DNA from: Minisyncoccota bacterium
GTDB lineage: Bacteria; Patescibacteriota; Minisyncoccia; Phycocordibacterales; UBA5272
Direction: 5' to 3'
Assembly (NCBI GenBank): GCA_018063165.1
Contig: JAGOQU010000002.1
Coordinates: 3,048-67,047 of the forward strand
DNA length: 64,000 bases
The notes beneath the pieces were generated by a model. That model saw only the letters and a list, made by a program, of their open reading frames with translations. It was not told where the DNA came from and did not search any database. A program made the position numbers and the translations under genes. This document shows positions 4,296 through 56,127 of the stretch, one piece after another (the stretch's first letter is position 1; every line of letters starts with the position of its first letter).

Positions 4296-4304
4296 TTCTT
4301 ATAT

Positions 4305-4601
4305 ATGGATTTTACAAAACTTTACAATGATTTACCAAAAGATTTCAATCTTATAAATCTAAACAATGAAGAGAAAGAAGAGATGCTTTTTGAAATTTCA
4401 AAAACTATACAAAAGCAATTCCTGCTTGATGTATATGATCTTCTTGGTAAAGATAAGTTTGATGCGCTTCAAGCATCAGCTCAAATGGGGGATGAATTTT
4501 ATATCACAACACTTAAACATTTACTTCCAAGCTATGAAGAAGTGTTTGTTACTGCACGAATGAAAATAGTAACAGCGTTTAATAAAAATATAGCATCTTA
4601 A
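4305..4601 (+). CDS. Hypothetical small protein (98 aa)
   Basis: ORF immediately downstream of the previous gene, followed by terminator hairpin aaagggcgaaacc-gaa-ggtttcgcccttttt at 4627-4657. Confidence 0.35.
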   Translation: MDFTKLYNDLPKDFNLINLNNEEKEEMLFEISKTIQKQFLLDVYDLLGKDKFDALQASAQMGDEFYITTLKHLLPSYEEVFVTARMKIVTAFNKNIAS

Positions 4602-4626
4602 ATACATACACTGTTATATATGTGGA

Positions 4627-4657
4627 AAAGGGCGAAACCGAAGGTTTCGCCCTTTTT
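4627..4657 (+). terminator. Intrinsic terminator
   Basis: GC-rich perfect hairpin followed by a T-run. Confidence 0.6.
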
Positions 4658-4710
4658 AATCACACACACCTCACACATATGAATGTATTAGATCTGCTAT
4701 ACTACATGCC

Positions 4711-39509: not shown

Positions 39510-39542
39510 ATTAAGTGAGGTGATTTTATAAACATAATTATA

Positions 39543-41984: not shown

Positions 41985-42082
41985 AATAGAGAATATTTTA
42001 ATTATAGCAAAGAAAAGAAATTCTTATTTGTTATTTTTTAAGTAATGTACTTATCTGTTTTATTTAAGTAAAATTAAAACGA

Positions 42083-43211
42083 CTAACGGATAGCATTTTG
42101 AAGTATGGATTTTATTTGTTCGTTTACTAGTTCTGGATCTAATAATTTTCTTAACGCATTTATTTGTTTCGGTAAAATAGATTGACCGCATAATTCTTTG
42201 ATTCTTTCCGTAACAAGTGGAATATCTTTAAAAGATATTACCATATTAGATAATCCTACTTTATTTAGAATTTCAGAACACCCCATTGTTTCACTTACTA
42301 AAACAGGAATACCAAGACATACTGCTTCCATAGGAACATTACCAAAAGTTTCAAAATGAGAAGGGGATATTATCAAACCTTGGGATAAATAAAACCTCTT
42401 AATTCCTAATGTGTCCATTGGAGGTAATACAGTGACTGTTTTTGGTATTTTTTTCTCTATATTCGATACAAAAAAAACATTCATGGTCCCATTTTTGCTG
42501 TAAAAGTTTTTTATGGATTTCAAAAAAAGTATCAAAATTTTTAATGTAGGTATATCTTCCAACTCCAGCAATTCTTCTGGAAACACTAAAATCAACAGAA
42601 ACATCACTAAGAAAATCTTTATTTACAGCATTCGGTATAACGTATGTTTTTGCGGTTAAATGTTTATGAAATAATTCCTCAACAGTAGTCTTACATATTT
42701 TTGAAGGAAATATTATTTTTTTTGCTCTTTTAATAATACTTAACTCCATTAGATAAAAAAGTTTTCTATCTTTTTCTTTATAATGTTCAACTTCTTTTGT
42801 CAGGATTCCTGAGTACCAAAGAACGATAGGAATACCAGCTTTTTTGGCTGCGACAGAAAGTATCCAAGGAATGTAATAGGTGCCACTAATAAGAAATACA
42901 TCAGGTTTTGTTTCTTTTAAAATTAAATATACATCATTAATAACATCAGAAAAATAAGATTCTAAATCTTTTAAAATATTTGATGAATCAAGTGCTTCTT
43001 TTAAATTATAATTATGAATATTAATAATATTATGATCAAACAGAGCTGGGTTAAGCTGTCTAAAAATTACTGGTCCTTTCATAACACGTCGAGCATTTAT
43101 TTCAATTGCCACTGTTTGAATGTCTTGACCATAAATATGTTTAATAAAACTAAGATTAGAAGCCGTAATTCCTCCAAGAAACTCGCGAGAAACATTGATA
43201 GCAATTTTCAT
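42083..43211 (-). pseudogene. Family-1 glycosyltransferase split by a frameshift (N-terminal ORF 42399..43211, C-terminal ORF 42083..42607)
   Basis: C-terminal ORF carries the GT1 motif 'SHFETFGNVPMEAVCLGIPVLV'; the two ORFs overlap by ~209 nt in different frames. Confidence 0.5.
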
Positions 43212-43325
43212 AATAACTATAATTCTACCATTTTTAAACTATTTATTATAGAAATTTTATGAGATATTAGAACCTAAAGTACAAATACAAAAATGACACC
43301 ATGTAGTGTCATTTTTGTATTTTGA

Positions 43326-43620
43326 GTTATAAAGACTACTTATTGAGTGGTAACAAAAGTACCATTTAGATTCCAAATACTTACATTACCTTGTAAATCA
43401 GTAGCTACTATAACATAGTAATACTGAGTATTAGGAGAAAGGTTGTTTATAATAACTTGTTGTGATTGACGTGCAACTGAATCATTTGTAACAGAATAAC
43501 CATTTTTTGAACCAAAACCTACTTAGTTAATATCTCCTTCATTCATAGTTATTAGTCCTGAATTATAAAATACTTTTGCGGAAGCTAGTCATTTGTATTC
43601 CATGTAAAAGTAACAGCGGT
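43326..43620 (-). pseudogene. Remnant of a fibronectin-type-III-like domain protein gene
   Basis: Reverse-strand translation reads '...NNLSPNTQYYYVIVATDLQGNVSIWNLNGTFVTTQ*' but the region has in-frame stops upstream, and no ORF of 60 aa or more is present. Confidence 0.3.
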
Positions 43621-43689
43621 ATTTCTTACATATCTAGTTACATTAAAATTTGAAAGAATTTTCCTCTATTTTTCGTATATACTAGTGGT

Positions 43690-44256
43690 GTGCTTCATAT
43701 AACAACTCTCACAGATGAAGAATTGGCAAAACAAAGTGTTTTAGACACACTGTGTTTTGGTGAGCTTGTTGAAAGATATGATACTGTTTTACTTCGTTAT
43801 GTGATGAGACGTTCTCATGCTACAAAAGAAGATGCTGAAGATATAGTTCAAAATAGTTTTATTAAAATGTATCGTAACATTAATGATTTTGATCCTTCTT
43901 TAAAATTTTCTTCATGGGCATATCGTATTACTCATAATGAGCTTATTGACTGGTATCGTAAACAAAAAAGTAGACCGCAGATAAGTATTTCTAGTGGAGA
44001 TGAGGATGTTTTTTCTTCTATTGCAGGGGATATAAATATAGAAAAAGAAGCAATAGAACAAGAAACAAAAAAAGAAATTAAAAAAGTGGTAGAAACATTA
44101 GATCCAAAATATCAAGAAGTAGTCATGTTACGTTTTTTTGAAGAAAAAAGTTATGACGAAATAGCAGATATTTTACAAATTCCATCCGGTACAGTTGCTA
44201 TACGATTATCACGTGCAAAAAAGATTTTAGAAGAAAGTTTACAACCTTATTCATAA
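43690..44256 (+). CDS. ECF-type RNA polymerase sigma-70 family factor
   Basis: Region 2 'DIVQNSFIKMYRNINDFDP...FSSWAYRITHNELIDWYRKQ', region 4 'VVMLRFFEEKSYDEIADILQIPSGTVAIRLSRAKKIL'. Confidence 0.8.
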   Translation: MLHITTLTDEELAKQSVLDTLCFGELVERYDTVLLRYVMRRSHATKEDAEDIVQNSFIKMYRNINDFDPSLKFSSWAYRITHNELIDWYRKQKSRPQISISSGDEDVFSSIAGDINIEKEAIEQETKKEIKKVVETLDPKYQEVVMLRFFEEKSYDEIADILQIPSGTVAIRLSRAKKILEESLQPYS

Positions 44257-44263
44257 AATATAT

Positions 44264-45103
44264 ATGAATACAAAGATTTCACAAACAATTTTACATAAAA
44301 TAGAGAAAGAAAATATTAAACCAAAAGCAAGATGGTATTTTGTGCTTGAACATGGAATACTCTGGGTTCCAGGTATTCTTGTTACATTACTCGGAGCTGT
44401 TGCTGTAGCAGGTATAGTATATGCAGTAATGCATTCTGGTTGGGAATATAATGAATTTGTATATAAAACAAAAGTAGATTTTTTAATTGCTACTACTCCA
44501 TTTTTATGGGTGATTTCTTTTGCCCTTTTTAACTCTCTTATTGTTAAAGCTTTACGTACTACTCATTTGGGGTACAGGATGTCTGCTAAAAAAATAATTA
44601 TAGGAAGCTTTACTACAAGTATTATTCTTGGATGTTCTGTATATGTATTTGATGAAAAGTTTGAAGTAGATAGTCTTATACGTTATCCTGTACATATAAG
44701 AGAAAAAGGTGTTTGGTCTTCTCCGGAACAAGGAAGAATGTCTGGTATAGTAGAAAAGAAATATGAAAAAGCTTTACTTGTAAGAGATTTTGAAAATAGA
44801 CTTTGGATTGTTGATATGTCTGGTTTTGGTTCAACAACATTTCCTTTTGTAGAAGAAGGAAAAAGTATACGAGTTCTTGGTACAACTACAGAAAATGTAT
44901 CAATAAATACTGACGTTAATAAAGAATATTCTTTTGTTGCATGTGCTCTATTTCCTTGGGAAATAGGAGGTAGAATGCATAAGCAGATACCACCTAAAGG
45001 TGAATTTAATAAACCAAAATTTCGTTTAAATAATCAAAACCCAGATTGTGAAAGTATTTTAGAAGAAATGAAAGGAAAAGTAAGAATGAGTGAAAGAAAG
45101 TAA
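44264..45103 (+). CDS. Membrane protein, candidate anti-sigma factor (by position only)
   Basis: Immediately downstream of the ECF sigma gene; several TM helices. Confidence 0.35.
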   Translation: MNTKISQTILHKIEKENIKPKARWYFVLEHGILWVPGILVTLLGAVAVAGIVYAVMHSGWEYNEFVYKTKVDFLIATTPFLWVISFALFNSLIVKALRTTHLGYRMSAKKIIIGSFTTSIILGCSVYVFDEKFEVDSLIRYPVHIREKGVWSSPEQGRMSGIVEKKYEKALLVRDFENRLWIVDMSGFGSTTFPFVEEGKSIRVLGTTTENVSINTDVNKEYSFVACALFPWEIGGRMHKQIPPKGEFNKPKFRLNNQNPDCESILEEMKGKVRMSERK

Positions 45104-45190
45104 AAGATGTCTTCGTAGTACTAGATGTTAACAGGGAGGCAGATTATGAATGATGTTAACATTTATTAACTATAATTCTACACACTCAAT

Positions 45191-45862
45191 ATGAAATCAA
45201 AACGTAAACATTTTCTCGCTTTATCACTCGCAAGTATTGGAGCTATTGGTGCATTTGCTTCGGTAAGTGCTGCATCGATACAATCAGGTTTAACAAATAA
45301 AGACAGAGACGAAGTAAGAACAGCTATTAAGCAGGCTGTAACAGCAGGTGACTATCAGGCATATCTTGCAACCACTAAAGAATATAAAATTGGTGTACCT
45401 GTTTTAACAGAATCTCAATTTTCAGTAATGGTGCAAGCACATAAACTTAGAGCATTAGGTGATAATGCAGGTGCAAAAAAATTACTAGATGATGCAAAAA
45501 TAACACCACCACAATCAAAAGAAGGAAATGGTGGAATGGGTTCAAAGCTTGGAAAAAGAAAAGATATGACAGCTTTTACAGATACACAGAAAACAGTAAT
45601 GAGACAAGCTCTTCTATTAAGAAAGGAGGGTAAAACAACAGAAGCAGATACTCTCCTTAAAAATGCTGGAATAAATACTCCTTTTCATAAAGGAGGAAAA
45701 GGAGGAGAAGGAATGAAAACATTTATGAGTGGTTTAACTGATACTCAGAAAGCGATAATGGATCAAGCTCACACACTTATGGAAAACGGAAAGAAAGATG
45801 AAGCTAGTGTTCTTATAAAAAATGCAGGCATAACACTTCCTCTTAGATCACAACTACAATAA
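45191..45862 (+). CDS. Secreted protein with internal tandem repeats
   Basis: Signal peptide; repeated units '...TDTQK.VM.QA..L...GK..EA..LLKNAGI.TP'. Confidence 0.45.
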   Translation: MKSKRKHFLALSLASIGAIGAFASVSAASIQSGLTNKDRDEVRTAIKQAVTAGDYQAYLATTKEYKIGVPVLTESQFSVMVQAHKLRALGDNAGAKKLLDDAKITPPQSKEGNGGMGSKLGKRKDMTAFTDTQKTVMRQALLLRKEGKTTEADTLLKNAGINTPFHKGGKGGEGMKTFMSGLTDTQKAIMDQAHTLMENGKKDEASVLIKNAGITLPLRSQLQ

Positions 45863-45907
45863 CATACATACATTAAATTGTATTTGTTCATATAGTATTT
45901 CTATCTT

Positions 45908-45941
45908 AAAAAAATACCAGTCATAACGACTGGTATTTTTA
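45908..45941. terminator. Bidirectional terminator hairpin
   Basis: aaaaataccagtc-ataa-cgactggtattttt. Confidence 0.55.
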
Positions 45942-46499
45942 TTATGTAAACATTTTCGTAAGTTCCGTGAGACATTCTGGTAGCTTTGTAAAACCAGCAC
46001 TACCGTTTAAATGTTTACCTTCATGAATAACAACCAAATCACAGTGTAATTTTTCTGCCAAGAATCCAGCATTTTGAATTGGTACAACAGGATCATCATC
46101 ACCATGAATAATTGCAAATCTAGATACTTTTGTATTTATTACATCAAAATTAATTGGTGTATTAAGAAAATGAGTAACTTTTTCATTTGTTGTTTTTTCA
46201 GCTGGACCAGACACAAGCACAGCTCCTTTAATGTGTATACCTTCTTTCATGGTTTCAAGATATTTAAGAATAGTAGGTACGCCAAGACTATGTCCAACCA
46301 AAAATAGTTCATCTTCTTGATTACGTTCTACATGTCTTTCTATTTCTTCAATCCATTCTGATAAAACAGGTGCCCCATGTTTTGGCATTGAAAGTGCACA
46401 TGCATAGACATCAATTTTTTGTAGTTCACTCATAAGCCAAGGTCTCCATCCACCATTAGGTGTTCCTTCTAGTCCATGAATAATAAATACTTTTTTCAT
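45942..46499 (-). CDS. Alpha/beta hydrolase, YdeN/RBBP9-like serine hydrolase
   Basis: 'VFIIHGLEG', nucleophile elbow 'LVGHSLGV', ~185 aa. Confidence 0.6.
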   Translation of the reverse strand: MKKVFIIHGLEGTPNGGWRPWLMSELQKIDVYACALSMPKHGAPVLSEWIEEIERHVERNQEDELFLVGHSLGVPTILKYLETMKEGIHIKGAVLVSGPAEKTTNEKVTHFLNTPINFDVINTKVSRFAIIHGDDDPVVPIQNAGFLAEKLHCDLVVIHEGKHLNGSAGFTKLPECLTELTKMFT

Positions 46500-46513
46500 A
46501 TTAGGGTAGTATT

Positions 46514-46777
46514 TTAAATTAAGCTAATTAAGAATACCCCAACAACTAAAACTAACAACCACATAAAAATAGTATTTTCAAATTTTAATAAGAGTAAACC
46601 CCAAAAATAAAACAAAATGGAGGATATTAAAGAACTAATAACAATAGCCAGAAAACTTTTTTTAGAAGAAAGGCTTGTTACTATAGATAAGATAAAAAAG
46701 AAAAAAGAAAGATATCTAACACCTTTCTCATCATGAATAAATTTCATAATAGCACCCATAAAAATAAGTAAAAACAT
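46514..46777 (-). CDS. Small membrane protein (87 aa)
   Basis: Three hydrophobic helices. Confidence 0.3.
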   Translation of the reverse strand: MFLLIFMGAIMKFIHDEKGVRYLSFFFFILSIVTSLSSKKSFLAIVISSLISSILFYFWGLLLLKFENTIFMWLLVLVVGVFLISLI

Positions 46778-46898
46778 GATTTTAAAATTAAGTTACAAGA
46801 ATTTTTAAATAAGTAGTTTAATTGTAACATGAATCATTTTTAATAAGAGATACTAAATTTGTAGAAAATGTAGCATTATTATTTGTTGTAAAAATGTG

Positions 46899-47045
46899 AG
46901 ATTCGATTACAAAAGCAATCACTTCGTTCGAGAAGTTTTCGCATTTGTTCAAGTCCAAGACATAACCTTGCTAGGTTAGAACCGAATCTGCTGATTCGCC
47001 TATTCGAATCTCACACGAAAGTGACGCAGGTCACTTGCTTTCTAC
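46899..47045. repeat. tRNA-T-arm-derived palindromic repeat and GCAG-loop hairpin module
   Basis: Inverted copies 'gtgagattcga' (46899) and 'tcgaatctcac' (47003), which match the T-arm of nearby tRNAs. Internal segment 'caagtccaagacataacc...' homologous to 56128-56225 with compensatory changes. Hairpin aagtgac-gcag-gtcactt. Confidence 0.6.
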
Positions 47046-47177
47046 TTCTTCACTGTCAAAATAAAAATAGAGTAAGAAGCTCTGTTTTTATTTTGATGCA
47101 GGCACTGTGGGACGAAATTGGAATATTGCTATACATGAATAACACACCATAAAAACTTATCATTGTTTATATATAAA

Positions 47178-47798
47178 TTAAAGAAGTCTAGATATTGTAT
47201 TATAAATACTAGTTTCTATAACATCTATAATATTTCGCCTCAAAGATTTTTTCTTCTTTAATACATCAAAAATGATATGAATTCTTGTTTCATTACTTCT
47301 GTTTTCAACGTGATGCATTTTTTTATTATCAAACCACCAGAGTTCTCCAGTGTTATAGATTTGATTCTCACTTCCACAAAAATTAATACTGTTGTTTGTT
47401 TTTAAAACAAGATGATACCTGTCTCTTGTAAGGTAGTATGAGCCTTCATCTATATGTGGCTTAACATTAGAATTACCATCTAATGTGACTATCATCACTC
47501 GTTCAAGTTGACCACCAAGTTCCTTTTCAAAAATTTTTAATAGACTAATTGTTTTTGTAAAATATGGAGCATTTTGTGGAACAGTAATTATATTCCCTGA
47601 ATTTCTATAATATTCTACAGTATTATCTTTTCTATTAATCTTATGCTCCCTTAAACTAACATGTTTTGTGTTCTCGTGATATGAAATATTTTTTGAGCGA
47701 ACATTACTCCATGTGTTTTTTTCTAGAAAATTAGAAAGTTCTAAGAGTGTCGTGGATACGTCTACATCCTTTTTTATTAATTTAAAATTTTGTTTCAT
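47178..47798 (-). CDS. Aspartyl/asparaginyl beta-hydroxylase-like 2OG-Fe(II) oxygenase (cupin fold)
   Basis: 'KPHIDEG' (HxD) and downstream 'HHVEN' His; length and spacing fit the Asp_Arg_Hydrox family. Confidence 0.45.
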   Translation of the reverse strand: MKQNFKLIKKDVDVSTTLLELSNFLEKNTWSNVRSKNISYHENTKHVSLREHKINRKDNTVEYYRNSGNIITVPQNAPYFTKTISLLKIFEKELGGQLERVMIVTLDGNSNVKPHIDEGSYYLTRDRYHLVLKTNNSINFCGSENQIYNTGELWWFDNKKMHHVENRSNETRIHIIFDVLKKKKSLRRNIIDVIETSIYNTISRLL

Positions 47799-47825
47799 TT
47801 TATAATTCTAGTGTATACTTATTGT

Positions 47826-47957
47826 ATGAATGATACCACTAAAAATAGAACTAAAAAAATACTGATTTACTTATTGTACGCAGTTTTATCGTGCTTCTAT
47901 TTTTTTCTTGGTTATGGATTTGTAGGCAGTATGATGGGTATTGGACAAGGTGATTAA
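47826..47957 (+). CDS. Possible small TM peptide (43 aa)
   Basis: 'MNDTTKNRTKKILIYLLYAVLSCFYFFLGYGFVGSMMGIGQGD'; below the ORF-track threshold, speculative. Confidence 0.2.
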   Translation: MNDTTKNRTKKILIYLLYAVLSCFYFFLGYGFVGSMMGIGQGD

Positions 47958-47962
47958 ACACT

Positions 47963-48121
47963 ATGATTAAAAATGCTCTTAAATTTATAGGCGTTAACGT
48001 TATTCTACTCGTTGTCTTTTTCTTATTAGGTGGACTCTCAGCTTTTTTAGTGTTGCAAAAACAAATTATTCACCAAAAGATACTAGTGACTCCACTCACA
48101 TCAACCAGCACTACTGATTAA
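47963..48121 (+). CDS. Possible small TM peptide (52 aa)
   Basis: 'MIKNALKFIGVNVILLVVFFLLGGLSAFLVLQKQ...'; speculative. Confidence 0.2.
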   Translation: MIKNALKFIGVNVILLVVFFLLGGLSAFLVLQKQIIHQKILVTPLTSTSTTD

Positions 48122-48202
48122 ACAAAATAACCACCGATTTTGGTGGTTATTTCTATGTGTGTTGCGGAGGCATATTCATAGTCGCGAGTACGTTCCTGAA
48201 TT
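48121..48202 (+). repeat. Repeat R1 copy A (hairpin aaataaccacc-gatttt-ggtggttattt + ~50 nt), followed by a ~95-bp insertion absent from copy B
   Basis: Aligned by eye to 50961..51040, with 3-4 substitutions over ~80 bp. Confidence 0.8.
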
Positions 48203-48299
48203 AGCAAATTCATGTCTTAGACCGATTTCTTAGATTGTAATCAATCTTCAATTAGCAAATTGACCTATCGGGTTTGAAATCGCAATCTTGTGGACTCCT
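48203..48299 (+). mobile_element. ~95-bp insertion/MITE-like element interrupting R1 copy A
   Basis: Copy B reads 'gtacgctccttgaaatgcactgcgcaaa' contiguously. Copy A has 'gtacgttcct|gaattagcaaatt...gtggac|tccttgaaatgcactgcgcaaa', with internal duplicated 'aattagcaaatt' and possible 'tcct' target duplication. Confidence 0.5.
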
Positions 48300-48387
48300 T
48301 GAAATGCACTGCGCAAATTATAGTCGCTCGATTACGAACTCCTTAATTTGTGGGGACTTTGGGACGAAGTTGGAATTTTAATTAATC

Positions 48388-48933
48388 TTAAACAAATCTA
48401 ACTCTTTTAGCTTCTTCCAAAAGAAACAATGTCCTTCTTGTTATAAAACTATCCTTTTGATTTTTAAGACATCTTATGGCTTCTTCTAAAGATAGCCATA
48501 CAACAGTAAGACCATCATGAACATCCTCTTTTGTAAACTGGGGGTTATTTTTTTCTCCATCAACATCAGCAGTAAAGCAATAGTTGAACTGAACCCTTCT
48601 TTTATTGAACTCATTACCAATTCCTCGTTCTTCTATAGTTCCTAATTCTTGAATATTTTTAATCTTACAACCGGTTTCTTCTAACGCTTCACGAATAAGA
48701 GCATCTTCAATTAGTTCACCTTCATCAATTCCACCACCGATTATAGAATATCTAAATGTATCATTGCCTTCATTAACAGCCCCTAATGCAACATTTCCTT
48801 CTGTATCAAAAATAACAATGCGAGTAGTTCTACGAGACTTTAGATATTCACTTTCTGGTGTTATTTCATTATTTGGATAAATATCTCTTTCTATTAAAGT
48901 TAAAATGGTTTTCATGTTATTTTTTAAATTCAC
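48388..48933 (-). CDS. NUDIX hydrolase
   Basis: NUDIX box 'GGGIDEGELIEDALIREALEETGCKI'. Confidence 0.8.
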   Translation of the reverse strand: MNLKNNMKTILTLIERDIYPNNEITPESEYLKSRRTTRIVIFDTEGNVALGAVNEGNDTFRYSIIGGGIDEGELIEDALIREALEETGCKIKNIQELGTIEERGIGNEFNKRRVQFNYCFTADVDGEKNNPQFTKEDVHDGLTVVWLSLEEAIRCLKNQKDSFITRRTLFLLEEAKRVRFV

Positions 48934-49447
48934 TCTTTAATTTACTATATATTAAGACGTCATAATATTTATTACCAATCTTCTTATCATCTCTTAATGT
49001 TCCTTCATATATAAACCCATTCTTTTCTGCTAATTTCTTAGATCTTTCATTATAAGAATATGTGCCATACTGCAATCTGTGTAATTTAAATTTTGTAAAA
49101 GCTGTTTTACATAAAAAATTTAACGCTTCTGACCCATAACCATTACCCCAAAATTCTTCCTTAATAGATAATGAAATCTTTGCGCTATTATTTTTCTTAT
49201 CAAATCTGTTTATGCTACATCTACCAATATATTCTTTATTTTTATTGAGAATTAAAAAAGTTGCTCTATTACCAATCTTTTCTTCTTTAATAATCTTTTT
49301 ATGATCTTCTAGATATTTTTTAAAAGTTAAATAATCAAATTCCTTCTTTAAAGTTCCGGATGAAAAATATATAACATTTTCTTCAAGGTTATCAAAACAT
49401 AATCTTGCATCTTTTAATTCTAATGGCTTAAAAGTTAATTTATACAT
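48917..49447 (-). CDS. GNAT-family N-acetyltransferase (RimJ/RimL-like)
   Basis: 'EEFWGNGYGSEALNFLCKTAF' acetyl-CoA binding motif; overlaps the NUDIX gene by 17 nt, suggesting an operon. Confidence 0.75.
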   Translation of the reverse strand: MYKLTFKPLELKDARLCFDNLEENVIYFSSGTLKKEFDYLTFKKYLEDHKKIIKEEKIGNRATFLILNKNKEYIGRCSINRFDKKNNSAKISLSIKEEFWGNGYGSEALNFLCKTAFTKFKLHRLQYGTYSYNERSKKLAEKNGFIYEGTLRDDKKIGNKYYDVLIYSKLKSEFKK

Positions 49448-49470
49448 AATTTTTTATTTTATACTAAAAA

Positions 49471-50013
49471 TTAAATCTCAATAATATACTTTTTATGCAA
49501 AACGATAGGCAAACCACTCTTAGACGCCTTGTCTATCGTGTCTTGAGTTCCTGTACTGTTATTAACTTGAAAAGCATACACTTCATCTGAGATCTTTACT
49601 TCCTCATCATGACGGTCATTATAATGATCTTGTGTGATAATATCATTTGGCATTTCAGATAAAGATTCAGGATTAGCATCTTTTATTTTTTGAAGAAGCT
49701 TTTCAAGGTTATTAACATTTTCTGTAGTAATTGGTGCTATTGTCCAATTAGTGTGATAGTCATACACATAACTCTTAAACATTGCTGGAATAATAACTTT
49801 TAATCGTGAAGCATCAGGATATAGCCTCATTGCTTCATCCATAGCAAAGTAATCCACCCCTGTAGCTCCACCTGTTACGATTCCATCGCCACGAGAAAGT
49901 ACTTCCCGAGTTGCTTCACGAACATCATTCTCAACTTCTTGATTTGTAAGTTTCCAAGTTCCTGTAAATAGTATCCATTTCATAGTTACTATTTTAACAT
50001 GGTATGGGTTCAT
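49471..50013 (-). CDS. SLOG/DprA-LOG-like Rossmann-fold nucleotide-binding protein
   Basis: 'VTGGATGVDYFAMDEA' glycine-rich motif reminiscent of DprA/LOG/YpsA (SLOG) families; assignment tentative. Confidence 0.35.
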   Translation of the reverse strand: MNPYHVKIVTMKWILFTGTWKLTNQEVENDVREATREVLSRGDGIVTGGATGVDYFAMDEAMRLYPDASRLKVIIPAMFKSYVYDYHTNWTIAPITTENVNNLEKLLQKIKDANPESLSEMPNDIITQDHYNDRHDEEVKISDEVYAFQVNNSTGTQDTIDKASKSGLPIVLHKKYIIEI

Positions 50014-50195
50014 TGTATAAAATTTTTCTGTAAATGACTGCCCCGTTTAAACTACATGTTTATATGCAATATATAAATGAAAATTGAAAATTGTATTGGA
50101 GCAACACATAATTTTCTAGATTGAAAACTACTCTTTAGTTTCTTGTTTGAGTTAAAATAAAAACAAAAACCGCTAACGCAGTTTTTGCGTAGCGG

Positions 50196-50489
50196 TTATT
50201 TAAGCCGTTCAATGGGGATGTTCACGTCATTGAGACACGCAACGGATACACCAGCAGTAACAAGGGTGTTAGGTGGGTAAAGTTTGAATGTTCCAAGAGA
50301 CCGACGAATCAACCTTTCAAGGTCCTGTGTTTGACCTTCGATAAAAACATTGGAAATGTGCTCAAGCGTAGGTGTCGAGATTTCTGAGGTCTCTTTTTTT
50401 ACGTACCGTAAATAAGAATCAGGGTTTTTGGTATCAAGAACCGTAGATATTTTAGCAATACATAATTGCCGTTTCTCTCTATCCTTCAT
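50196..50489 (-). CDS. Hypothetical protein (97 aa), second gene of a two-gene pair
   Basis: ORF; terminator hairpin overlapping the stop (50168-50198). Confidence 0.35.
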   Translation of the reverse strand: MKDREKRQLCIAKISTVLDTKNPDSYLRYVKKETSEISTPTLEHISNVFIEGQTQDLERLIRRSLGTFKLYPPNTLVTAGVSVACLNDVNIPIERLK

Positions 50490-50510
50490 TAGACGCTCCT
50501 AAGTTGAGAA

Positions 50511-50735
50511 TTATTTACTTGTATTTCGATATGAACCACCACGATAGCGGTTGTAACGTTTTGCATAGTAGGGAACTTTGGTTGTTTCGACTCTGCAACA
50601 CATTTGCTGAGGAACGAAAATTTTAGAAATTTGACCAAGAAGTTTTTCCTCCTGAATTGAATTGAATTCCTCAAAATCTGAGGATAAGTAAGCAGCTACA
50701 GTTGGGGTATGGCTGACAACAGTAAGAGTACACAC
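50511..50735 (-). CDS. Hypothetical small basic protein (74 aa), first gene of the pair
   Basis: ORF 22 nt upstream of the previous gene; C-terminus Arg/Tyr-rich. Confidence 0.3.
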   Translation of the reverse strand: MCTLTVVSHTPTVAAYLSSDFEEFNSIQEEKLLGQISKIFVPQQMCCRVETTKVPYYAKRYNRYRGGSYRNTSK

Positions 50736-50960
50736 CTTTTTATTTCCTTAAGTTAAAAGAGCCACTTCCTGAAAGAGATTTTTAGTATCTTTAAGGATGT
50801 TACAAGTATACACGAAATACATATTTTGTCAAGTATCACCATTGACGACTTGTAAATTAAGTGTTTTCGTGTTAGTGTCCTCTGTAATGGATAAAAACCA
50901 TTAAAAACTCATATTCATTCTGTAAGAACAGAACTGAGAAACAATACAAGTACCGAGAAA

Positions 50961-51040
50961 TAACCACCGATTTTGGTGGTTATTTTTATGTGTGTTGCGG
51001 AGGCATATTCATAGTCGCGAGTACGCTCCTTGAAATGCAC
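50961..51040 (+). repeat. Repeat R1 copy B
   Basis: See copy A; together they bracket ~2.8 kb. Confidence 0.8.
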
Positions 51041-51079
51041 TGCGCAAAATATGTCTTTTGTTTACAAAAGACTATTTTG

Positions 51080-51170
51080 CGGAGAATGTGAGATTCGAAC
51101 TCACGGGCCTAATAAAAGGCCGACGGTTTAGTAAACCGTTGATTTAAGCCACTCATCCAATTCTCCTGTA
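51080..51170 (-). tRNA. Type-II (long variable arm) Ser-like tRNA with atypical anticodon arm; manual fold gives anticodon ACU
   Basis: Minus-strand fold: acceptor GGAGAAT/ATTCTCC, T-arm GTGAGTTCGAATCTCAC, variable arm CGGCCTTTTATTAGGCCCG, anticodon arm ACGGT-TTACTAA-ACCGT that is part of a perfect palindrome ACGGTTTA-C-TAAACCGT. Confidence 0.5.
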
Positions 51171-51224
51171 CAAGCAATAATACCAAAATAAATAGCTTTA
51201 GTCACTGTTTTATAAAAAAACTTT

Positions 51225-51572
51225 TTATTTTGAAAGTGTGCCTATTCTGAGTTCTTGTAATAAAGATTGAGCTTCTCCTTTTGTGTGTTTTCTTTCACTT
51301 GTAAACATGGTGGTTGCATCATGTCCACAACCACGAAGTATTTCTGGGTTATGTTTTCCAGAAGCTATGAAAGATGTTGCATCGATAACAGAAGAATCTA
51401 TCGCTATCCAACAATCTTCTTTTGTAGCATGTTTTGCTACTTCTTCTAAGGTAAAGGTTTTGTTGTTTGTTGTTGTATTTGTAGTAACAGTAGTTGTTTG
51501 TTTTCTTAGTGTAAAAAACATAGTAATACTAATAATGATTACAATAAGTATAACGAGCATTGTTTTATTCAT
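51225..51572 (-). CDS. Membrane-anchored cytochrome b5-like domain protein (HPGG replaced by GKHNPE)
   Basis: 'TLEEVAKHATKEDCWIAIDSSVIDATSFI...GCGHDATTMFTSERKH...LLQELRIGTL' follows the cyt-b5 domain pattern; N-terminal TM. Confidence 0.45.
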   Translation of the reverse strand: MNKTMLVILIVIIISITMFFTLRKQTTTVTTNTTTNNKTFTLEEVAKHATKEDCWIAIDSSVIDATSFIASGKHNPEILRGCGHDATTMFTSERKHTKGEAQSLLQELRIGTLSK

Positions 51573-51678
51573 ATACTGGAGTATACGAATAGTTTGTTAT
51601 TTTTCTTTCATATACTATATATAAAGTAAATATAGTATATAATGGTGTGTAACTTATTAGATATAGTATTTAAAATGT

Positions 51679-52686
51679 ATGAATAAACATAAAATTCTAG
51701 CCATAATAATGGCAGGGGGTATAGCTTTAACAGGAATATATGTTTCTTTTGCTGAAGAAAATGACGAACTTTCTTTTGATTTAAAGTTTGGACAAAGGGG
51801 AACACAAATTACTAAACTTCAAGATTTTCTTATAGAAAAGGGATATCTTAACACAAATTCTACAGGGTATTTTGGAAGAATGACTGCAAACGCCGTAGCT
51901 CGTTATCAAAAAGAAAATAACTTAGATTCTGTTGGTCGTGTCGGCCCACTTACACGTAAAGCTATGAATAAAGACATGCGAACTTTAAAAGAATTTAAGA
52001 AAAAAGGAGATGACCACTCTACACAAAATTCTCTTGATGTAGATGGTGTATATTCAGGAACACTTCCTTGTGCATCATGTTCTGGAATAGAGACAACACT
52101 TGAACTTAACAAAGGAACGTACACTCTTGTTGAAAAGTATCTAAAGAGTGACACTCTTGTATCTACTACAACAGGTTCGTTTACTTGGAAAGATAAAAAT
52201 GTAATCCAATTAACCGGTATAGCAACCGGAACACGATCGGTAATGTATAAAGTTGGTGAAAATACAATAACACAGCTTAATATGGATGGTAATATGGTTA
52301 CAGGAGAAACTGCTCCTTTCTATACGTTAAAGAAAGTTGTTGCGACAGGGTATTTTGTTGAAGATAAGAAGTGGAAAATGGTAGAACTTGAAGGAAAACC
52401 AATAACTGGTTCTGTTGAGACGTATTACATAGTGCTTCACTCAAAAGAGAAAAGATTAGAAACAAAAGCGGGATGTAATCAAATGGGTGGTATGTATACA
52501 TTAGATGGATATAGATTCAAAACATCAGGAGTATTTTCTACAATGATGGCATGTGAGAATATGAATGATGAGCAAGCATTTTCAAAAGTATTAGAACTTG
52601 CTGATAACATTTCATATTCTGAAACTAACCTATCTTTCAACAAAGCTAGAATGGCTCCACTTGCGAGATTTGAACTAGTGAAGTAA
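51679..52686 (+). CDS. Peptidoglycan-binding domain + NlpE-N-like + META/HslJ-like domain protein
   Basis: PG_binding_1 pattern 'GTQITKLQDFLIEKGYLN...GYFGRMTANAVARYQKENNLDSVGRVGPLT'; 'LPCASCSGIETTLEL' NlpE-like. Confidence 0.55.
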   Translation: MNKHKILAIIMAGGIALTGIYVSFAEENDELSFDLKFGQRGTQITKLQDFLIEKGYLNTNSTGYFGRMTANAVARYQKENNLDSVGRVGPLTRKAMNKDMRTLKEFKKKGDDHSTQNSLDVDGVYSGTLPCASCSGIETTLELNKGTYTLVEKYLKSDTLVSTTTGSFTWKDKNVIQLTGIATGTRSVMYKVGENTITQLNMDGNMVTGETAPFYTLKKVVATGYFVEDKKWKMVELEGKPITGSVETYYIVLHSKEKRLETKAGCNQMGGMYTLDGYRFKTSGVFSTMMACENMNDEQAFSKVLELADNISYSETNLSFNKARMAPLARFELVK

Positions 52687-52708
52687 TTTGAAGTTTCTTG
52701 TTTAAAAG

Positions 52709-52740
52709 AAAAACAGAGCTTGAATGCTCTGTTTTTCTTT
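52709..52740 (+). terminator. Terminator hairpin
   Basis: aaaaacagagc-ttgaat-gctctgttttt. Confidence 0.55.
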
Positions 52741-52745
52741 TGATG

Positions 52746-52832
52746 CGGAGGAGGTGAGATTCGAACTCACGGTCCGATTACTCAGACTCCTGTTTTCAAG
52801 ACAGGTGCAATCGACCACTCTGCCACTCCTCC
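52746..52832 (-). tRNA. tRNA-Ser (anticodon TGA), type II
   Basis: Minus-strand fold: GGAGGAGTGGCAGAGTGG..., anticodon arm CCTGT-CTTGAAA-ACAGG, long variable arm, T-arm GTGAGTTCGAATCTCAC. Confidence 0.75.
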
Positions 52833-52919
52833 ATATTATTATCGATTGATACCTATTCTAACATACATATTTTGTTTTTTAAAGGTATCACTATATACTA
52901 GTATGATTACAATAAATAT

Positions 52920-53978
52920 ATGCAAAAAGAAGTACATACTACTACATTGCTTAGTGTCATAAAATATAAATATGCCCCATTTTTTATAATAGTACTATCT
53001 GGTATTATTTTTGGTGCCGGATATATAACATCTTCTTTAATTACTGAAGATAAATACCAAGATTTTTTGAGTAATTTTAAGAACATCCGTGAAGATACAT
53101 CAAAATATACGTTTATTAACCCACTCGTTGGTAACATAAGTGCACCAGCGACAGATGTTGGTATATATACAGATATTAAAGAAGATATAGATTCTTATTT
53201 GGAAAAACAAAAGAAAAAAGGTGAATTGTTTAATTATTCTTTTTATTTTAGAGATTTGAATTCTGGTCTTTGGTTTGGTTCTAACGAATTAGAATCTTTT
53301 TTTCCTGCTAGTTTATTTAAATTACCTATTGCTCTTGCAGCATACAAACAAACAGAAGATAAGCCTGGTTTCATTAATACAATGGTTGTATATACAGAGG
53401 ATATAGCAAAAAGAAATGAGGTAGTACAAATAAATGCAGTGAGTACTCTTACTATAGGGAAAGCATATTCAATAGAGTATCTAATAGAAAGAATGTTAAT
53501 TGACTCTGATAACGGAGCAAAAGATTTAATACTTTCTGTTCTTGATATGAAATATTTTGATGATCTTTTTCAGACTGTATCTTTTGTTGATTATAATACA
53601 GATAATAAGTATTCACTTTCTTCTTGTAAATATTCTTTGTTTCTAAGAGTTCTTTATGGGTCATCGTATGTTAATGAAACACATTCAGAACTTATTATGT
53701 CTTTACTAACTAAAAGTGAATATAAAGATGGTTTGGTAGGAGGTATACCAGGTTCTGTTAAGGTAGCTCATAAGTTTGGTACGTATCAGTTTGATGAAGA
53801 GGAAAAAGGTGTAACAGTTTCTTCAAGACAGTTACATGATTGTGGTGTTGTGTACCATTTAGAAAATCCATATGTTATTTGTTTCATGACAAAAGGAAAA
53901 GATCTTGAAACGTTACAAAAAATAATTGGACATATTTCTTCCTTAGTATATCAATATCAATCAGAAGGAGATCATTAA
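52920..53978 (+). CDS. Beta-lactamase class A-like / penicillin-binding serine hydrolase fold protein
   Basis: 'ASLFK' (SxxK), 'DSDN' (SDN), 'HKFGT' (K[T/F]G); N-terminal TM. Confidence 0.55.
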   Translation: MQKEVHTTTLLSVIKYKYAPFFIIVLSGIIFGAGYITSSLITEDKYQDFLSNFKNIREDTSKYTFINPLVGNISAPATDVGIYTDIKEDIDSYLEKQKKKGELFNYSFYFRDLNSGLWFGSNELESFFPASLFKLPIALAAYKQTEDKPGFINTMVVYTEDIAKRNEVVQINAVSTLTIGKAYSIEYLIERMLIDSDNGAKDLILSVLDMKYFDDLFQTVSFVDYNTDNKYSLSSCKYSLFLRVLYGSSYVNETHSELIMSLLTKSEYKDGLVGGIPGSVKVAHKFGTYQFDEEEKGVTVSSRQLHDCGVVYHLENPYVICFMTKGKDLETLQKIIGHISSLVYQYQSEGDH

Positions 53979-53986
53979 ATATATAT

Positions 53987-54448
53987 ATGAAATATCTTGG
54001 TTTAGATTTTGGTTCTAAAAAAGTTGGATTTGCTCAGTCAGATGATGAAGGAAGACTTGCTTTTCCTCTCATGATTGCACCAAATGATACTTCTTTGTTA
54101 AAAGATACACTTGAACTTATTCGTGAAATGAAGTTTTCTGTTGTTGTAATAGGGGAGAGTGTTGATGGTAATGGAACATTAAATCCAATAGCAAAAGAAG
54201 CTAGAGCTTTTGGTGCAAAAATTGAAAATGGAATAGATGTTATTGTAAAATTTGAAAAGGAGTGGTATTCGACAGTGGAAGCTCGTAAACAACCTGGTAA
54301 TGAAGGTAATCATGAAGTTGACGATCAAGCCGCTGCTATTGTTCTTCAAAGATATCTTGATAAGATTAACGGTCCACAAATATCTGAAGAAACATTTGGT
54401 GATGAAGAAGATTTGGATGAAGTAGAACAAACTTCTGATTCTTGGTAA
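53987..54448 (+). CDS. ruvX: YqgF/RuvX-like Holliday-junction-resolvase-family nuclease
   Basis: 'YLGLDFGSKKVGFAQSDDEGRLAFPL', 'VVVIGESVDGNG' RNase H-fold pattern. Confidence 0.7.
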   Translation: MKYLGLDFGSKKVGFAQSDDEGRLAFPLMIAPNDTSLLKDTLELIREMKFSVVVIGESVDGNGTLNPIAKEARAFGAKIENGIDVIVKFEKEWYSTVEARKQPGNEGNHEVDDQAAAIVLQRYLDKINGPQISEETFGDEEDLDEVEQTSDSW

Positions 54449-54458
54449 TATAGTATAT

Positions 54459-54839
54459 ATGGATAATAAAGATACACAAGATAATAAAAGCGTTGTTAAT
54501 GAAACAGAAAAAGAATATATAACTATTGATGATTTTGTAAAAATTGATATCAGAGTAGGGGAGGTGCTTTCTGTTTCTGTTGTTGAAGGTGCTGATAAAT
54601 TATATATTCTTTCTGTTGATTTAGGTGAAGAAAAACCAAGACAAATCCTTTCAGGTATTAGAGAATTTATAGAGAGTGTAGACCTTGTTGGAAAACAGTT
54701 TCCATTTATTACAAATTTAGCACCTCGTATGTTAAGGGGGCATGAATCACAAGGGATGATATTAGCAGGAAGTGACGAACATGGTTTAGCTCTTTTTAAT
54801 CCTTCTAAAACACTTAAAAACGGAACAAGACTTAGATAG
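54459..54839 (+). CDS. tRNA-binding (EMAP/Myf/CsaA-like) domain protein
   Basis: 'DFVKIDIRVGEVLSV...KLYILSVDLGEE..RQILSGI...FITNLAPRMLRGHESQGMILA'. Confidence 0.7.
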   Translation: MDNKDTQDNKSVVNETEKEYITIDDFVKIDIRVGEVLSVSVVEGADKLYILSVDLGEEKPRQILSGIREFIESVDLVGKQFPFITNLAPRMLRGHESQGMILAGSDEHGLALFNPSKTLKNGTRLR

Positions 54840-54869
54840 AAAACAAAAAAAGATTAAAAATCTTTATTT

Positions 54870-55469
54870 TTGATATGGTATGATTACACTATGATACAAA
54901 AGTTAGTTTCTTGGACAGAGGCATTCGCTAAACACAAACACAATGAATTATATTTATTTGCTGTAGCTTTTACAGAATCTTCTTTTTTTCTTATACCTCC
55001 TGATGTTCTTATTATAGCCATTCTTTCACATGGTATAAAAGTTTCTTGGCTTCGTATAGCGTCTATTTCAACCGTTGGATCAGTTCTGGGAGGTATTTTT
55101 GGATACTTAATAGGAAGTTTTTTTTATACACATATAGGAGAACCTGTCGTTGTTATGTATGGTCTTCAGGAAGAAGTGCTGTATGTTGGTGAACAGTTCA
55201 AAAAAAATGCTTTCCTTTCTATTTTAGTAGCTGCTTTTACTCCTATTCCTTATAAAGTCTTCACTATTTCTGCTGGTCTTTTTTCACTTAATTTATTTAC
55301 ATTTATTGGTGCGTCAATTGTTGGTCGTGGTGCTCGTTTTTTTCTGGTAGCTTTTTTAGCAGATAGATACGGAGAGAAAACAAAAGAGTTTATAGTAAAA
55401 AAATTTGATGCTGTCTTTTTTGTTATAGGTATATTAATTCTTTTTTTACTTTATTTTGTTAATAAGTAG
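54870..55469 (+). CDS. DedA/YqaA-family membrane protein
   Basis: 'LFAVAFTESSFFLIPPDVLIIAIL'. Confidence 0.6.
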   Translation: MIWYDYTMIQKLVSWTEAFAKHKHNELYLFAVAFTESSFFLIPPDVLIIAILSHGIKVSWLRIASISTVGSVLGGIFGYLIGSFFYTHIGEPVVVMYGLQEEVLYVGEQFKKNAFLSILVAAFTPIPYKVFTISAGLFSLNLFTFIGASIVGRGARFFLVAFLADRYGEKTKEFIVKKFDAVFFVIGILILFLLYFVNK

Positions 55470-55483
55470 AGTATACTTTCTAT

Positions 55484-55717
55484 ATGAATCACCACATATG
55501 TATACATGATGAATATAGTACTTTTGATGGAGAGTTTGTACCTATTGGAAAACAACTTATTGAAAAAGATATAACGCAAGCTATTAATGAAGTGCTTGAT
55601 ATGATTGTTCACAAAATTGGAAAAGGGAATGTGGTTGTTTGTGGAAAAGGTGATGCAAAAAGAATGTTAGGTAGAAAACTCGAAGATAGATTAGGGAGAA
55701 AAGTGGAGTACGAATAA
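55484..55717 (+). CDS. Hypothetical small protein (77 aa)
   Basis: ORF only. Confidence 0.3.
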   Translation: MNHHICIHDEYSTFDGEFVPIGKQLIEKDITQAINEVLDMIVHKIGKGNVVVCGKGDAKRMLGRKLEDRLGRKVEYE

Positions 55718-55754
55718 AACAAAATACGTTTTATTTAAATAGTTTTTTGTAGAT

Positions 55755-55772
55755 GTGCCCTCGCGTGGAATC
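55755..55772 (+). repeat. Direct copy of the tRNA-Arg(TCT) 3' end (gtgccctcgcgtggaatc), ~145 bp beyond the gene
   Basis: 18/18 nt identical to 55919..55936. Confidence 0.75.
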
Positions 55773-55869
55773 TGTCACAAATCTGCCTCGCTTTGCTCGA
55801 AGCAGATTCGCGATCCCGTATTCGCTTCCACCGTAAGTGACGAAGGTCACTTACTTTCTGTTGACATTG

Positions 55870-55917
55870 TTAATATAAAAAGTACCCACTGATTACAGTC
55901 GGTACTTTTTATATTAA
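55870..55917. terminator. Long perfect hairpin adjacent to the tRNA-Arg(TCT) 3' end
   Basis: ttaatataaaaagtacc-(14 nt)-ggtactttttatattaa. Confidence 0.55.
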
Positions 55918-55919
55918 TG

Positions 55920-55991
55920 TGCCCTCGCGTGGAATCGAACCACGAATAACGGCTTAGAAGTCCGCAGTTATATCCATTTAACTACAAGGGC
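55920..55991 (-). tRNA. tRNA, manual fold gives anticodon TCT (Arg); weak 27:43/31:39 pairs
   Basis: Minus-strand: GCCCTTG-TA-GTTA...TAAC-T-GCGGA-CTTCTAA-GCCGT-...CGTGGTTCGATTCCACG-CGAGGGC-A. Confidence 0.6.
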
Positions 55992-56127
55992 GTAAAGCAC
56001 AGTATATATACTATCAGAAATTTTAAAAAGAGGCGAGAAGTATAGTAAGTACACCTTGTTGTTTTATCGGAATCGGTCACGTAAACAATTTTTGATTACA
56101 AAAAATAGAAGTCTACCCTTGATTCCA

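Follow-up and report, generated by a model that had tools for sequence, protein, structure and literature searches.

A tRNA-Ser trailer hairpin and its terminator form the direct repeats around an accessory gene segment in a Minisyncoccota genome

Three described systems come close to the locus studied here: genomic islands linked to tRNA genes and bracketed by attachment (att)-type repeats, integron cassettes with their attC hairpins, and plant-mitochondrial t-elements, where, as in the tRNA punctuation model, tRNA-like structures serve as transcript-processing signals. We compare with them a segment of contig JAGOQU010000002.1 from a Minisyncoccota (Paceibacteria) bacterium, in which two direct repeats, called R1, bracket five genes next to tRNA-Ser(ACT); the whole 64-kb stretch that was analysed is referred to as the window. 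Like tRNA-linked islands, the segment is an accessory block directly 3' of a tRNA, bracketed by repeats and absent or replaced in relatives, and it also has a degenerate tRNA-like 3' end, X1, at its distal border. It differs from them in that its repeats lie off the tRNA and consist of a covarying hairpin (M) and a terminator, that no integrase accompanies them, that X1 is no copy of the adjacent tRNA and that the block is nested in a variable region including the tRNA itself. Integron attC cassettes share with the locus the succession of cargo and an imperfect, structure-conserved hairpin with conserved ends, variable centre and length and bulged bases, as well as the bracketing of different cargo by such hairpins in different genomes. 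However, no IntI-type integrase, attI or cassette array was seen, the ends of M, UUUGCGCAGUGCA at the 5' side and UGCCUCCGCAA at the 3' side, do not fit the R''/R' consensus RYYYAAC/GTTRRRY on reading the sequence, and M is anchored to tRNA-Ser genes, with which it is apparently co-transcribed. With t-elements M shares the mimicry of a tRNA 3' end (its 3' strand runs to ..UGCCUCCGCAA) at the 3' ends of tRNA genes and protein units, but it is without a T-arm and its host is bacterial; the likeness is an analogy only.

The reading that we consider probable is that the five genes are cargo in an array of tRNA-Ser trailers: R1 is half of such a trailer, the segment is accessory, the left module is a relic and the segment is not self-mobile.

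Composition of the repeats and the tRNA-Ser trailer

Direct repeats of about 80 bp, reported in an earlier note on this DNA, are real, and their boundaries can be refined to a 95-nt unit. The right copy is a single contiguous unit (50958-51052), and the left copy consists of two pieces, 48125-48197 and 48295-48321, broken by 97 nt (48198-48294). The first piece corresponds to 50958-51030 (73 nt, 2 mismatches; family D1, 97% identical) and the second to 51026-51052 (27 nt, 1 mismatch; family D19, 96% identical), the three mismatches overall lying at 48153, 48193 and 48318 in left-copy numbering. R1 is present twice in the window and no more; a 32-mer and a 27-mer taken from it each occur exactly twice in the 64 kb, with none expected from shuffled sequence. 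An independent assembly, GCA_017992935.1 (locus L001), has a base-for-base identical arrangement, and short Logan contigs end within R1, as expected of a genuine two-copy repeat; such contigs are uninformative on the empty site. An exact 30-mer of R1 had no match in the JGI metagenomes. The right copy had been placed 40 bp from the tRNA, whereas its true end sits 26 nt from the 3' end of tRNA-Ser(ACT), a hairpin (51053-51072) occupying the gap. The elements of the two borders are the following.

48125 to 48152 (no strand assigned): T1-left, a bidirectional intrinsic-terminator hairpin, AAATAACCACCGATTTTGGTGGTTATTT, in the first part of R1-left (inverted repeat I2, exact 27-mer present twice, fold)
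48125 to 48197 (no strand assigned): R1-left part a, T1 plus the 3' half of the M hairpin in minus-strand reading
48198 to 48294 (no strand assigned): 97-nt insertion, hairpin-rich, splitting the left M and flanked by TTCCT/CTCCT (alignment A1)
48295 to 48321 (no strand assigned): R1-left part b, the 5' half of M
48314 to 48350 (minus): S2, a hairpin of S/M-core type, CAAAUUA-AGGAG-hairpin-CGACUAU-AAUUUG, diverged counterpart of S, with parallels in L047 and L062
48351 to 48377 (minus): X1, degenerate tRNA-like 3' end TTCCAACTTCGTCCCAAAGTCCCCA between the NUDIX stop and S2 (pattern search)
50958 to 51052 (no strand assigned): R1-right, intact, with T1 at 50958-50985 and the M hairpin at 50995-51052 (minus strand)
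51053 to 51072 (minus): S hairpin between the tRNA 3' end and M, its outer stem reaching into CGCAAAAUA/UAUUUUGCG
51079 to 51166 (minus): tRNA-Ser(ACT), with S-M-T1 as its trailer (ARAGORN, Rfam)

R1 corresponds precisely to M plus T1, that is, a hairpin of about 52 nt and a bidirectional terminator hairpin. On the minus strand, which is the strand of tRNA-Ser(ACT) and of all five bracketed genes, the order at the right copy is the tRNA 3' end (..AUUCUCCGCA), hairpin S, hairpin M and terminator T1, and the fold of the S-M-T1 stretch is much stronger than that of shuffled sequence (z = -7.6 and -5.9). The motif 'tgcggagg', which had been pointed out in both copies, is indeed found at 48163-48170 and 50996-51003; it is explained by M, whose 3' end reproduces that of tRNA-Ser genes. 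R1 is no tRNA-fragment att site: it is a structured trailer motif followed by a terminator. A template/variable repeat (TR/VR) pair of a diversity-generating retroelement was considered for R1 and rejected, for want of a reverse transcriptase and of any adenine specificity in the mismatches.

In a subclade of the Paceibacteria, S followed by M is the usual 3' trailer of the tRNA-Ser genes with anticodons GCT, ACT and GGA. The pieces of R1 are found in other species invariably in the order S then M, with S at an identical position in every S-M trailer seen. A covariance model of M, built from 8 copies, recognised in the window one intact M (R1-right, 78.7 bits), the split left copy, and S2 at 48314-48350 (16.8 bits, model positions 16-48), which also folds. 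In 17 JGI/ENA metagenome loci fetched by a pattern lying outside the tRNA, 14 M copies are situated 21-52 nt downstream of a same-strand tRNA-Ser (GCT, ACT, GGA), in one case the next gene is tRNA-Ser(CGA), and in these loci no M stands behind a non-Ser tRNA. The alignment of M covers 31 instances: besides the window it draws on five GTDB species-representative genomes, on a sixth with a weak partial match, and on 16 metagenome contigs, of which two or more look like copies of those genomes or of each other. In this alignment 91.5% of cells are paired and both-sided changes occur at 10 of 18 pairs, counts that are somewhat inflated by the fitting of the alignment to the model; covariation scores 0.343, while shuffles give 0.10 and sliding the partners gives no more than 0.075. 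M is a selected, conserved structure, and covariation over the 31 instances supports its fold. Rfam gave no match at E <= 1 across 44000-56000 and nothing meaningful at E <= 10 across 48100-48400, and on loci bearing M or the related Y units, described below, it gave tRNA matches alone; no earlier description of S-M or Y trailer elements was found in the searchable literature. Since a terminator or another tRNA-Ser usually comes next after M, the hairpin is apparently part of the tRNA-Ser transcript. Orphan X-S-M modules, in which a degenerate tRNA-like end takes the place of the tRNA, were found after protein genes in other genomes.

The adjacent tRNA itself, previously called atypical, is no oddity of this genome. 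The anticodon arm of tRNA-Ser(ACT) is exactly conserved in at least 120 GTDB species representatives (Paceibacteria, Nomurabacteria and relatives; loci L015-L134 and L136-L151). This tRNA, with its A34 anticodon, often adjoins tRNA-Ser(GCT), which makes two tRNAs for AGY codons in these genomes.

At the distal border of the segment, the left copy belongs to a second module that has decayed. The minus strand past the NUDIX stop runs through X1, S2, the 5' half of M, the 97-nt insert, the 3' half of M and T1. X1 is composed of a degenerate T-arm and acceptor 3' strand, and it has a near-copy at 47108-47123 (minus), after the stop of the AspHyd gene. Behind protein genes of L138 and L062, orphan S-M modules are likewise preceded by an end of the X1 type, and in L141, L143 and L033 the X position is taken by degenerate tRNA-like ends of other kinds. 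The homology between the left and right modules spans their full length at unequal levels: M+T1 is 97% identical, S and S2 have only the outer stem in common, and X1 and the tRNA end are by eye roughly half identical. The 97-nt insert has exact matches of 27 and 14 nt to a hairpin between convergent genes of L008 (16943-16982, in the region 16920-17010), which suggests that it may be a miniature mobile hairpin element. A nested piece of 24 nt of this insert (CAATTAGCAAATTGACCTATCGGG) resembles an insertion in a Y unit of L044.

The variable locus and the origin of the segment

The closest comparisons of gene order come from two metagenome or genome loci, L155 and L013. The features of the window that frame them, beyond the borders listed above, are these.

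47963 to 48121 (plus): p52, small membrane open reading frame (ORF), the last conserved gene of the left flank, convergent on the left repeat (ORF list)
51225 to 51572 (minus): cyt-b5-like gene of the larger variable block, in L013, not in L155
51679 to 52686 (plus): PG_binding-NlpE-META gene of the larger variable block, in L013, not in L155
52745 to 52832 (minus): tRNA-Ser(TGA), conserved right anchor of the variable block

L155, a JGI contig of 59 kb, has an AspHyd with 70% identity to that of the window. It keeps one flank (L19, PseudoU synthase, VTT, tRNA_bind, RuvX, a beta-lactamase-like protein (blac), tRNA-Ser(TGA)) and the other (p52, p55, AspHyd, Ser-hydrolase ... S20, RuvA), the N-terminal 23 residues of p52 being 61% identical to the ORF at the equivalent place. 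The interval from tRNA-Ser(TGA) to p52 contains no more than a terminator, a pair of Y units and a membrane ORF of 244 aa: NlpE-META, cyt-b5, tRNA-Ser(ACT), the five bracketed genes and M, all of 48122-52744, are missing from L155. A closer relative, L013 (71-98% identity), has NlpE-META, cyt-b5 and tRNA-Ser(ACT) in common with the window, and carries the C-terminus of a large serine recombinase directly at the 3' end of tRNA-Ser(ACT) instead of the window's segment; this partial ORF (2-349) was identified through the full-length 502-aa gene of L123, not through the L010 recombinase. Since L155 lacks the segment and L013 carries other DNA in its place, 48122-52744 reads as a nested variable block anchored on tRNA-Ser genes, with the R1 segment as its inner layer. 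The earlier view of an accessory segment at a tRNA-linked variable site thus holds good, its position and content being conserved in no relative examined. More broadly, the locus is hypervariable: the 3' end of tRNA-Ser(ACT) in 112 species representatives is followed by the recombinase in 8, Y units in 22, S-M in 3 and something else in 79, and a SLOG, NUDIX or GNAT gene lies near this tRNA in 0 of about 120 species.

The serine recombinase has features of its own. Its 502-aa gene (L123, oriented 3100-4605) converges on tRNA-Ser(ACT), so closely that the last codons overlap the tRNA 3' end, and further such loci are L116, L060, L020, L016, L017 and L034. In L123 a second, inverted partial copy of the C-terminal coding end abuts another tRNA.

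The same kind of bracket encloses other cargo elsewhere. L062 has the 3' end of a Y unit, S-M-M', genes for NTP_transf_2 and WGR-domain proteins, then X-S-M-M', and its two M copies are identical at 52 of 55 positions while the S hairpins have diverged, as in the window. L033 has tRNA-Ser(ACT), fragments of a TOTE archaeo-eukaryotic primase (AEP)/helicase, Fic/DOC and SWIM genes, then X-S-M-M. Therefore, modules in direct orientation bracket unrelated cargo in independent genomes. The cargo between tRNA-Ser(ACT) and the orphan X-S-M of L033 (300-4100) is conflict-like, and similar cargo lies in L062 (5999-7357). On reading the sequence, a metagenome contig, L139, has at 3839-4894 (oriented) and in the neighbouring ORFs a reverse-transcriptase-like ORF and a putative methylase/helicase pair, 2-6 kb upstream of tRNA-Ser(ACT)-S-M-M.

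According to the reading of the five genes as cargo in a trailer array, the full module would comprise the tRNA 3' end, hairpin S, hairpin M and an intrinsic terminator, R1 being the distal half of the transcribed trailer. The right copy would be the working trailer and terminator of tRNA-Ser(ACT), and the left copy is now probably just a terminator common to the NUDIX-GNAT-SLOG operon and the convergent p52. The ~2.7 kb between them would be cargo lodged among the trailers of a tRNA-Ser locus, a recombination hot spot in this clade; it could have entered, or been shuffled, by recombination in or next to the module, through a recombinase that acted in trans or has since disappeared. That M+T1 is 97% identical would go back to this recent event or to later gene conversion seeded by the conserved M, and the 97-nt insertion would have come afterwards. 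Since T1 is duplicated and S and S2 have diverged, an intragenomic event or conversion is favoured.

Several points weigh against this reading. The proposed check for an empty site was answered in part, as L155 keeps the flanks without the segment; a strictly empty site (p52-T1-M-S-tRNA with nothing between) was not found, and we infer insertion from non-conservation. The composition of the NUDIX and SLOG genes is ordinary. X1 is close to neither of the neighbouring tRNA-Ser genes, so it is no fresh displaced 3' end. The genome-specific terminator T1 was duplicated along with M, which would be unexpected from a foreign donor. Furthermore, M may act as RNA or as DNA, and the inflation of its pairing counts, given above, has to be borne in mind. 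The earlier note had also asked whether R1 is a common repeat of unrelated loci: M does recur behind tRNA-Ser genes elsewhere, and R1 occurs only twice in the window.

Some of these points would suit a history without any insertion, in which the five genes are old residents and M+T1 was copied, by duplication or conversion, between two pre-existing diverged modules. Identity limited to M+T1, with S/S2 and X1/tRNA end diverged, a genome-specific T1, the typical composition of the NUDIX and SLOG genes, and an M conserved enough to seed conversion (that of L142 is 4 positions off the window's) all speak for it. We nevertheless find it doubtful, given an L155 locus without the gene block, an L013 locus with other DNA there, a SLOG gene located elsewhere in the seven other genomes examined and the unrelated genes surrounded by the L062 bracket.

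Flanking direct repeats at a tRNA had been taken for the signature of a classic genomic island. What stands of this is that the segment is accessory, lies at a tRNA 3' end, with the right repeat ending 26 nt off tRNA-Ser(ACT), and is absent in L155; what does not stand are repeats made of tRNA fragments and an integrase. The repeats hold no 3' part of a target tRNA, M+T1 lying downstream of it with merely 8-9 nt or so (GCGGAGG) in common with tRNA-Ser ends. No recombinase was found in the five ORFs (Pfam scans) or in the annotated neighbourhood, some 8 kb to each side (L001), and tblastn with the clade's serine recombinase gave none in the 64-kb window; tyrosine recombinases elsewhere were not exhaustively screened. 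A self-mobile island is not supported, and the segment is not self-mobile today.

An integrase island could still be imagined in which R1 represents attL and attR, left by a circular element with R1 as its attP, the integrase being lost or acting in trans. Such an origin would account for direct repeats that flank a unique segment by a tRNA 3' end, for the different cargo within the L062 bracket and for the atypical composition of two small genes of the segment, p74 and p97, and in relatives, elements with a serine recombinase have a hot spot of integration at this tRNA end. It is unlikely, however, since no integrase is encoded in the segment or its annotated neighbours, nor a serine recombinase in the 64 kb, since the repeat boundaries are those of a functional hairpin and terminator and not of a tRNA, and since neither M in IMG/VR viral contigs nor a circular or empty form was found. 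Large serine recombinases, moreover, leave just a 2-bp overlap, not 95-bp repeats, and the 95-nt repeat therefore needs another origin. Under the trailer-array reading, the candidates would be a Campbell-type crossover between two M+T1 copies and gene conversion seeded by M.

Two further observations concern the surroundings. The PG_binding-NlpE-META lipoprotein has about three close relatives in the candidate phyla radiation (CPR), while most of the next ones, at about 50% identity, belong to Bacteroidota (Chitinophagales) and some to Proteobacteria, a pattern suggestive of horizontal acquisition; a search of genome contigs with the NlpE-META protein gave no match. A second variable block (38910-45862, against 12500-15900 in L155) lies between Ser-hydrolase and ribosomal protein S20. 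It carries an extracytoplasmic function (ECF) sigma factor, two unassigned ORFs, glycosyltransferases, a P-type ATPase and a VTT protein in the window, and a YkuD/Peptidase_S11 protein with a 368-aa ORF in L155.

The genes between the repeats

The gene content is as first described, with NUDIX and GNAT genes overlapping by 17 nt, a SLOG-like gene and a pair of small genes of 97 and 74 aa.

48388 to 48933 (minus): NUDIX hydrolase, 181 aa (Pfam PF00293, E = 1.5e-17)
48917 to 49447 (minus): GNAT acetyltransferase, 176 aa, RimJ/RimL-like Acetyltransf_3 (Pfam PF13302, E = 2e-19)
49471 to 49983 (minus): SLOG-like protein, YpsA/DprA-like, stand-alone, 170 aa from the conserved start; the ORF reaches 50013
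50163 to 50188 (minus): intrinsic terminator of p74-p97 (terminator scan)
50196 to 50489 (minus): p97, orphan ORF, 97 aa
50511 to 50735 (minus): p74, orphan ORF, 74 aa, uncalled in the NCBI annotation
50805 to 50832 (minus): promoter-like site upstream of p74, TTGACA-16-TATACT, 11 of 12 matches (a consensus match only)

In the NUDIX protein the Nudix box GX5EX7REUXEEXGU, read from the translation, is intact (GGIDEGELIEDALIREALEETGC), and NCBIfam gave no equivalog at its cut-off. Against a mean over the window genes of 0.322 for GC and 0.167 for GC at third codon positions (GC3), the window as a whole having a GC of about 32%, the composition of NUDIX is ordinary, and SLOG has a GC3 of 0.234, about 1.9 standard deviations (sd) above the mean. 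GNAT has a GC of 0.235 and a codon usage about 2.5 sd off the window mean. The GC3 of p97 reaches 0.367, 5.5 sd above the mean, and that of p74 is 0.28 (the two together, 3-5.5 sd above); the GC of the bracketed region is inside the range of the window.

A comparison of the small pair with toxin-antitoxin databases had been suggested. Neither partner matches a known toxin or antitoxin family: nothing was found for p97 or p74 in Pfam, PHROGs, PADLOC or NCBIfam, and tblastx of their region against all fetched loci gave nothing. p97 has no homologues among 1.84 billion representative proteins save two matches to long repeat proteins, in which its residues 27-71 weakly match the repeat. The p74-p97 unit may be foreign, non-coding or a remnant.

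The assignment of the SLOG-like protein is upheld by its fold. The AlphaFold model has a predicted local distance difference test score (pLDDT) of 93.9, and the top Foldseek matches are DprA 4ljr (E = 5.6e-07, template modelling (TM) score 0.68), YpsA 2nx2 and ShosA 8zva, with TM1055, LOG and the SLOG domain of ThsA also among the matches. Its glycine-rich loop, TGGATGVD, has G38, G39, G42, V43 and D44 invariant in 25 homologues (alignment A4), and a GxD signature is characteristic of the YpsA clade of the SLOG superfamily (PMC6459960, summarising Burroughs et al. 2015). With the YpsA/DprA clades of that account (Burroughs et al. 2015, via PMC6459960) the protein shares the Rossmannoid SLOG fold, the GxD and a scattered association with nucleotide/NAD salvage. 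It differs in being a single domain of 170 aa, in matching the Pfam DprA and cpYpsA models below threshold and in being confined to Paceibacteria-like genomes, all of its 578 homologues, at 65-89% identity, coming from such sources.

In seven other contexts the SLOG gene occupies different genomic places. Its neighbours there include NUDIX once (L010), His_Phos_1 twice, dCMP deaminase twice and MGMT three times, besides NTPase_I-T, HIT and MsrB; GNAT adjoins it in none of the seven, and the NUDIX-GNAT-SLOG trio is not conserved. These neighbourhoods point to nucleotide salvage or house-cleaning. The three annotated genes most likely act in such processes, not in a defence-like one, NUDIX as a hydrolase and the SLOG-like protein as a YpsA/DprA-like nucleotide binder or processor.

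The combination of SLOG, NUDIX, GNAT and the small pair had been compared to nucleotide-centred conflict or signalling modules, and one could picture a nucleotide-based defence, conflict or toxin-antitoxin module on a defence islet. SLOG domains do occur in Thoeris ThsA and Shosta ShosA, both among the fold matches, PADLOC gave weak matches to ShosA (E = 1e-3) and PsyrA (E = 2e-3), and the cargo at the equivalent site in L033 and L062 is conflict-like (TOTE, Fic, nucleotidyltransferase). However, we regard this as very unlikely. The PADLOC matches are marginal and insignificant, with no effector domain and no partner or effector genes (TIR/ThsB, the ShosT phosphoribosyltransferase), whereas the SLOG protein belongs to a conserved single-domain family beside salvage and house-cleaning genes. 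NUDIX is adjacent to it in one and GNAT in none of the seven other contexts, p97 and p74 match no toxin-antitoxin or defence model, and SLOG has no relatives in IMG/VR viral contigs.

Finally, a mis-join of two loci with a common terminator is hardly credible: the window does come from a metagenome-assembled genome, and short-read contigs break at the repeat, but its source contig and GCA_017992935.1 agree base for base over both junctions, the two copies can be told apart by 3 mismatches and the 97-nt insertion, and both junctions are biologically coherent.

Y units and the family of tRNA 3'-end mimics

A second type of element, the Y unit, was observed in the window (46893-47060 and 55745-55875, both minus) and in L155 (8457-8860), L111, L075, L102, L044, L025, L062 and others. 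Y units are 110-230 nt long, strongly folded (z about -5.3 to -5.6) and often in tandem. Their 5' arm is an inverted copy, and their 3' arm a direct copy, of the T-stem and acceptor 3' strand of the adjacent tRNA, and their interior is conserved as ..GAGAUUCGAAUAGGGGUCGCGAA-hairpin-UUGUGACCGAAUCUCAC. One of the two units of the window follows tRNA-Arg(TCT), which is the reason for the repeat D13 (55743-55772 and 55907-55936), and the other follows a pseudo-tRNA end downstream of AspHyd. ARAGORN found no transfer-messenger RNA (tmRNA) or hidden tRNA in Y units or X elements, and Y has no match in Rfam. A tmRNA or RNase P had been considered for Y, in view of GAUUCGAA and GGUGCC-like motifs, and was rejected, as the units are too short and have no T-arm, no tag ORF and no model match.

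M looks like a minimised Y. It is possible, and we propose it tentatively, that S-M and Y form one uncatalogued family of tRNA 3'-end mimics, in which the 3' end of the adjacent tRNA is copied twice, inverted in the 5' arm and direct in the 3' arm, around a variable interior. Its members could be recombination sites, which would insert promoter-bearing cassettes behind tRNA-Ser in an integron-like manner with the recombinase in trans, or tRNA-like punctuation, which would direct the 3' processing of tRNA-Ser and of neighbouring mRNAs. If so, R1 would be a working part of the system and not a scar.

A small accessory block beside a tRNA is ordinary in itself. Less ordinary is a covarying hairpin, absent from Rfam, behind tRNA-Ser genes of several anticodons in ultra-small (CPR) bacteria, which other genomes have again, accompanied by a pseudo-tRNA end, on the distal side of unrelated cargo. 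The analysis delimits a SLOG protein family with 578 tightly conserved members from Paceibacteria-like genomes; of greatest interest among its results are the trailers of the S-M (and related Y) family, with their mimicry of tRNA 3' ends. CPR genomes are reduced yet patchwork, and should these modules turn out to serve gene insertion or the processing of transcripts, they would offer a concrete, testable handle on gene exchange at the tRNA loci of these bacteria.

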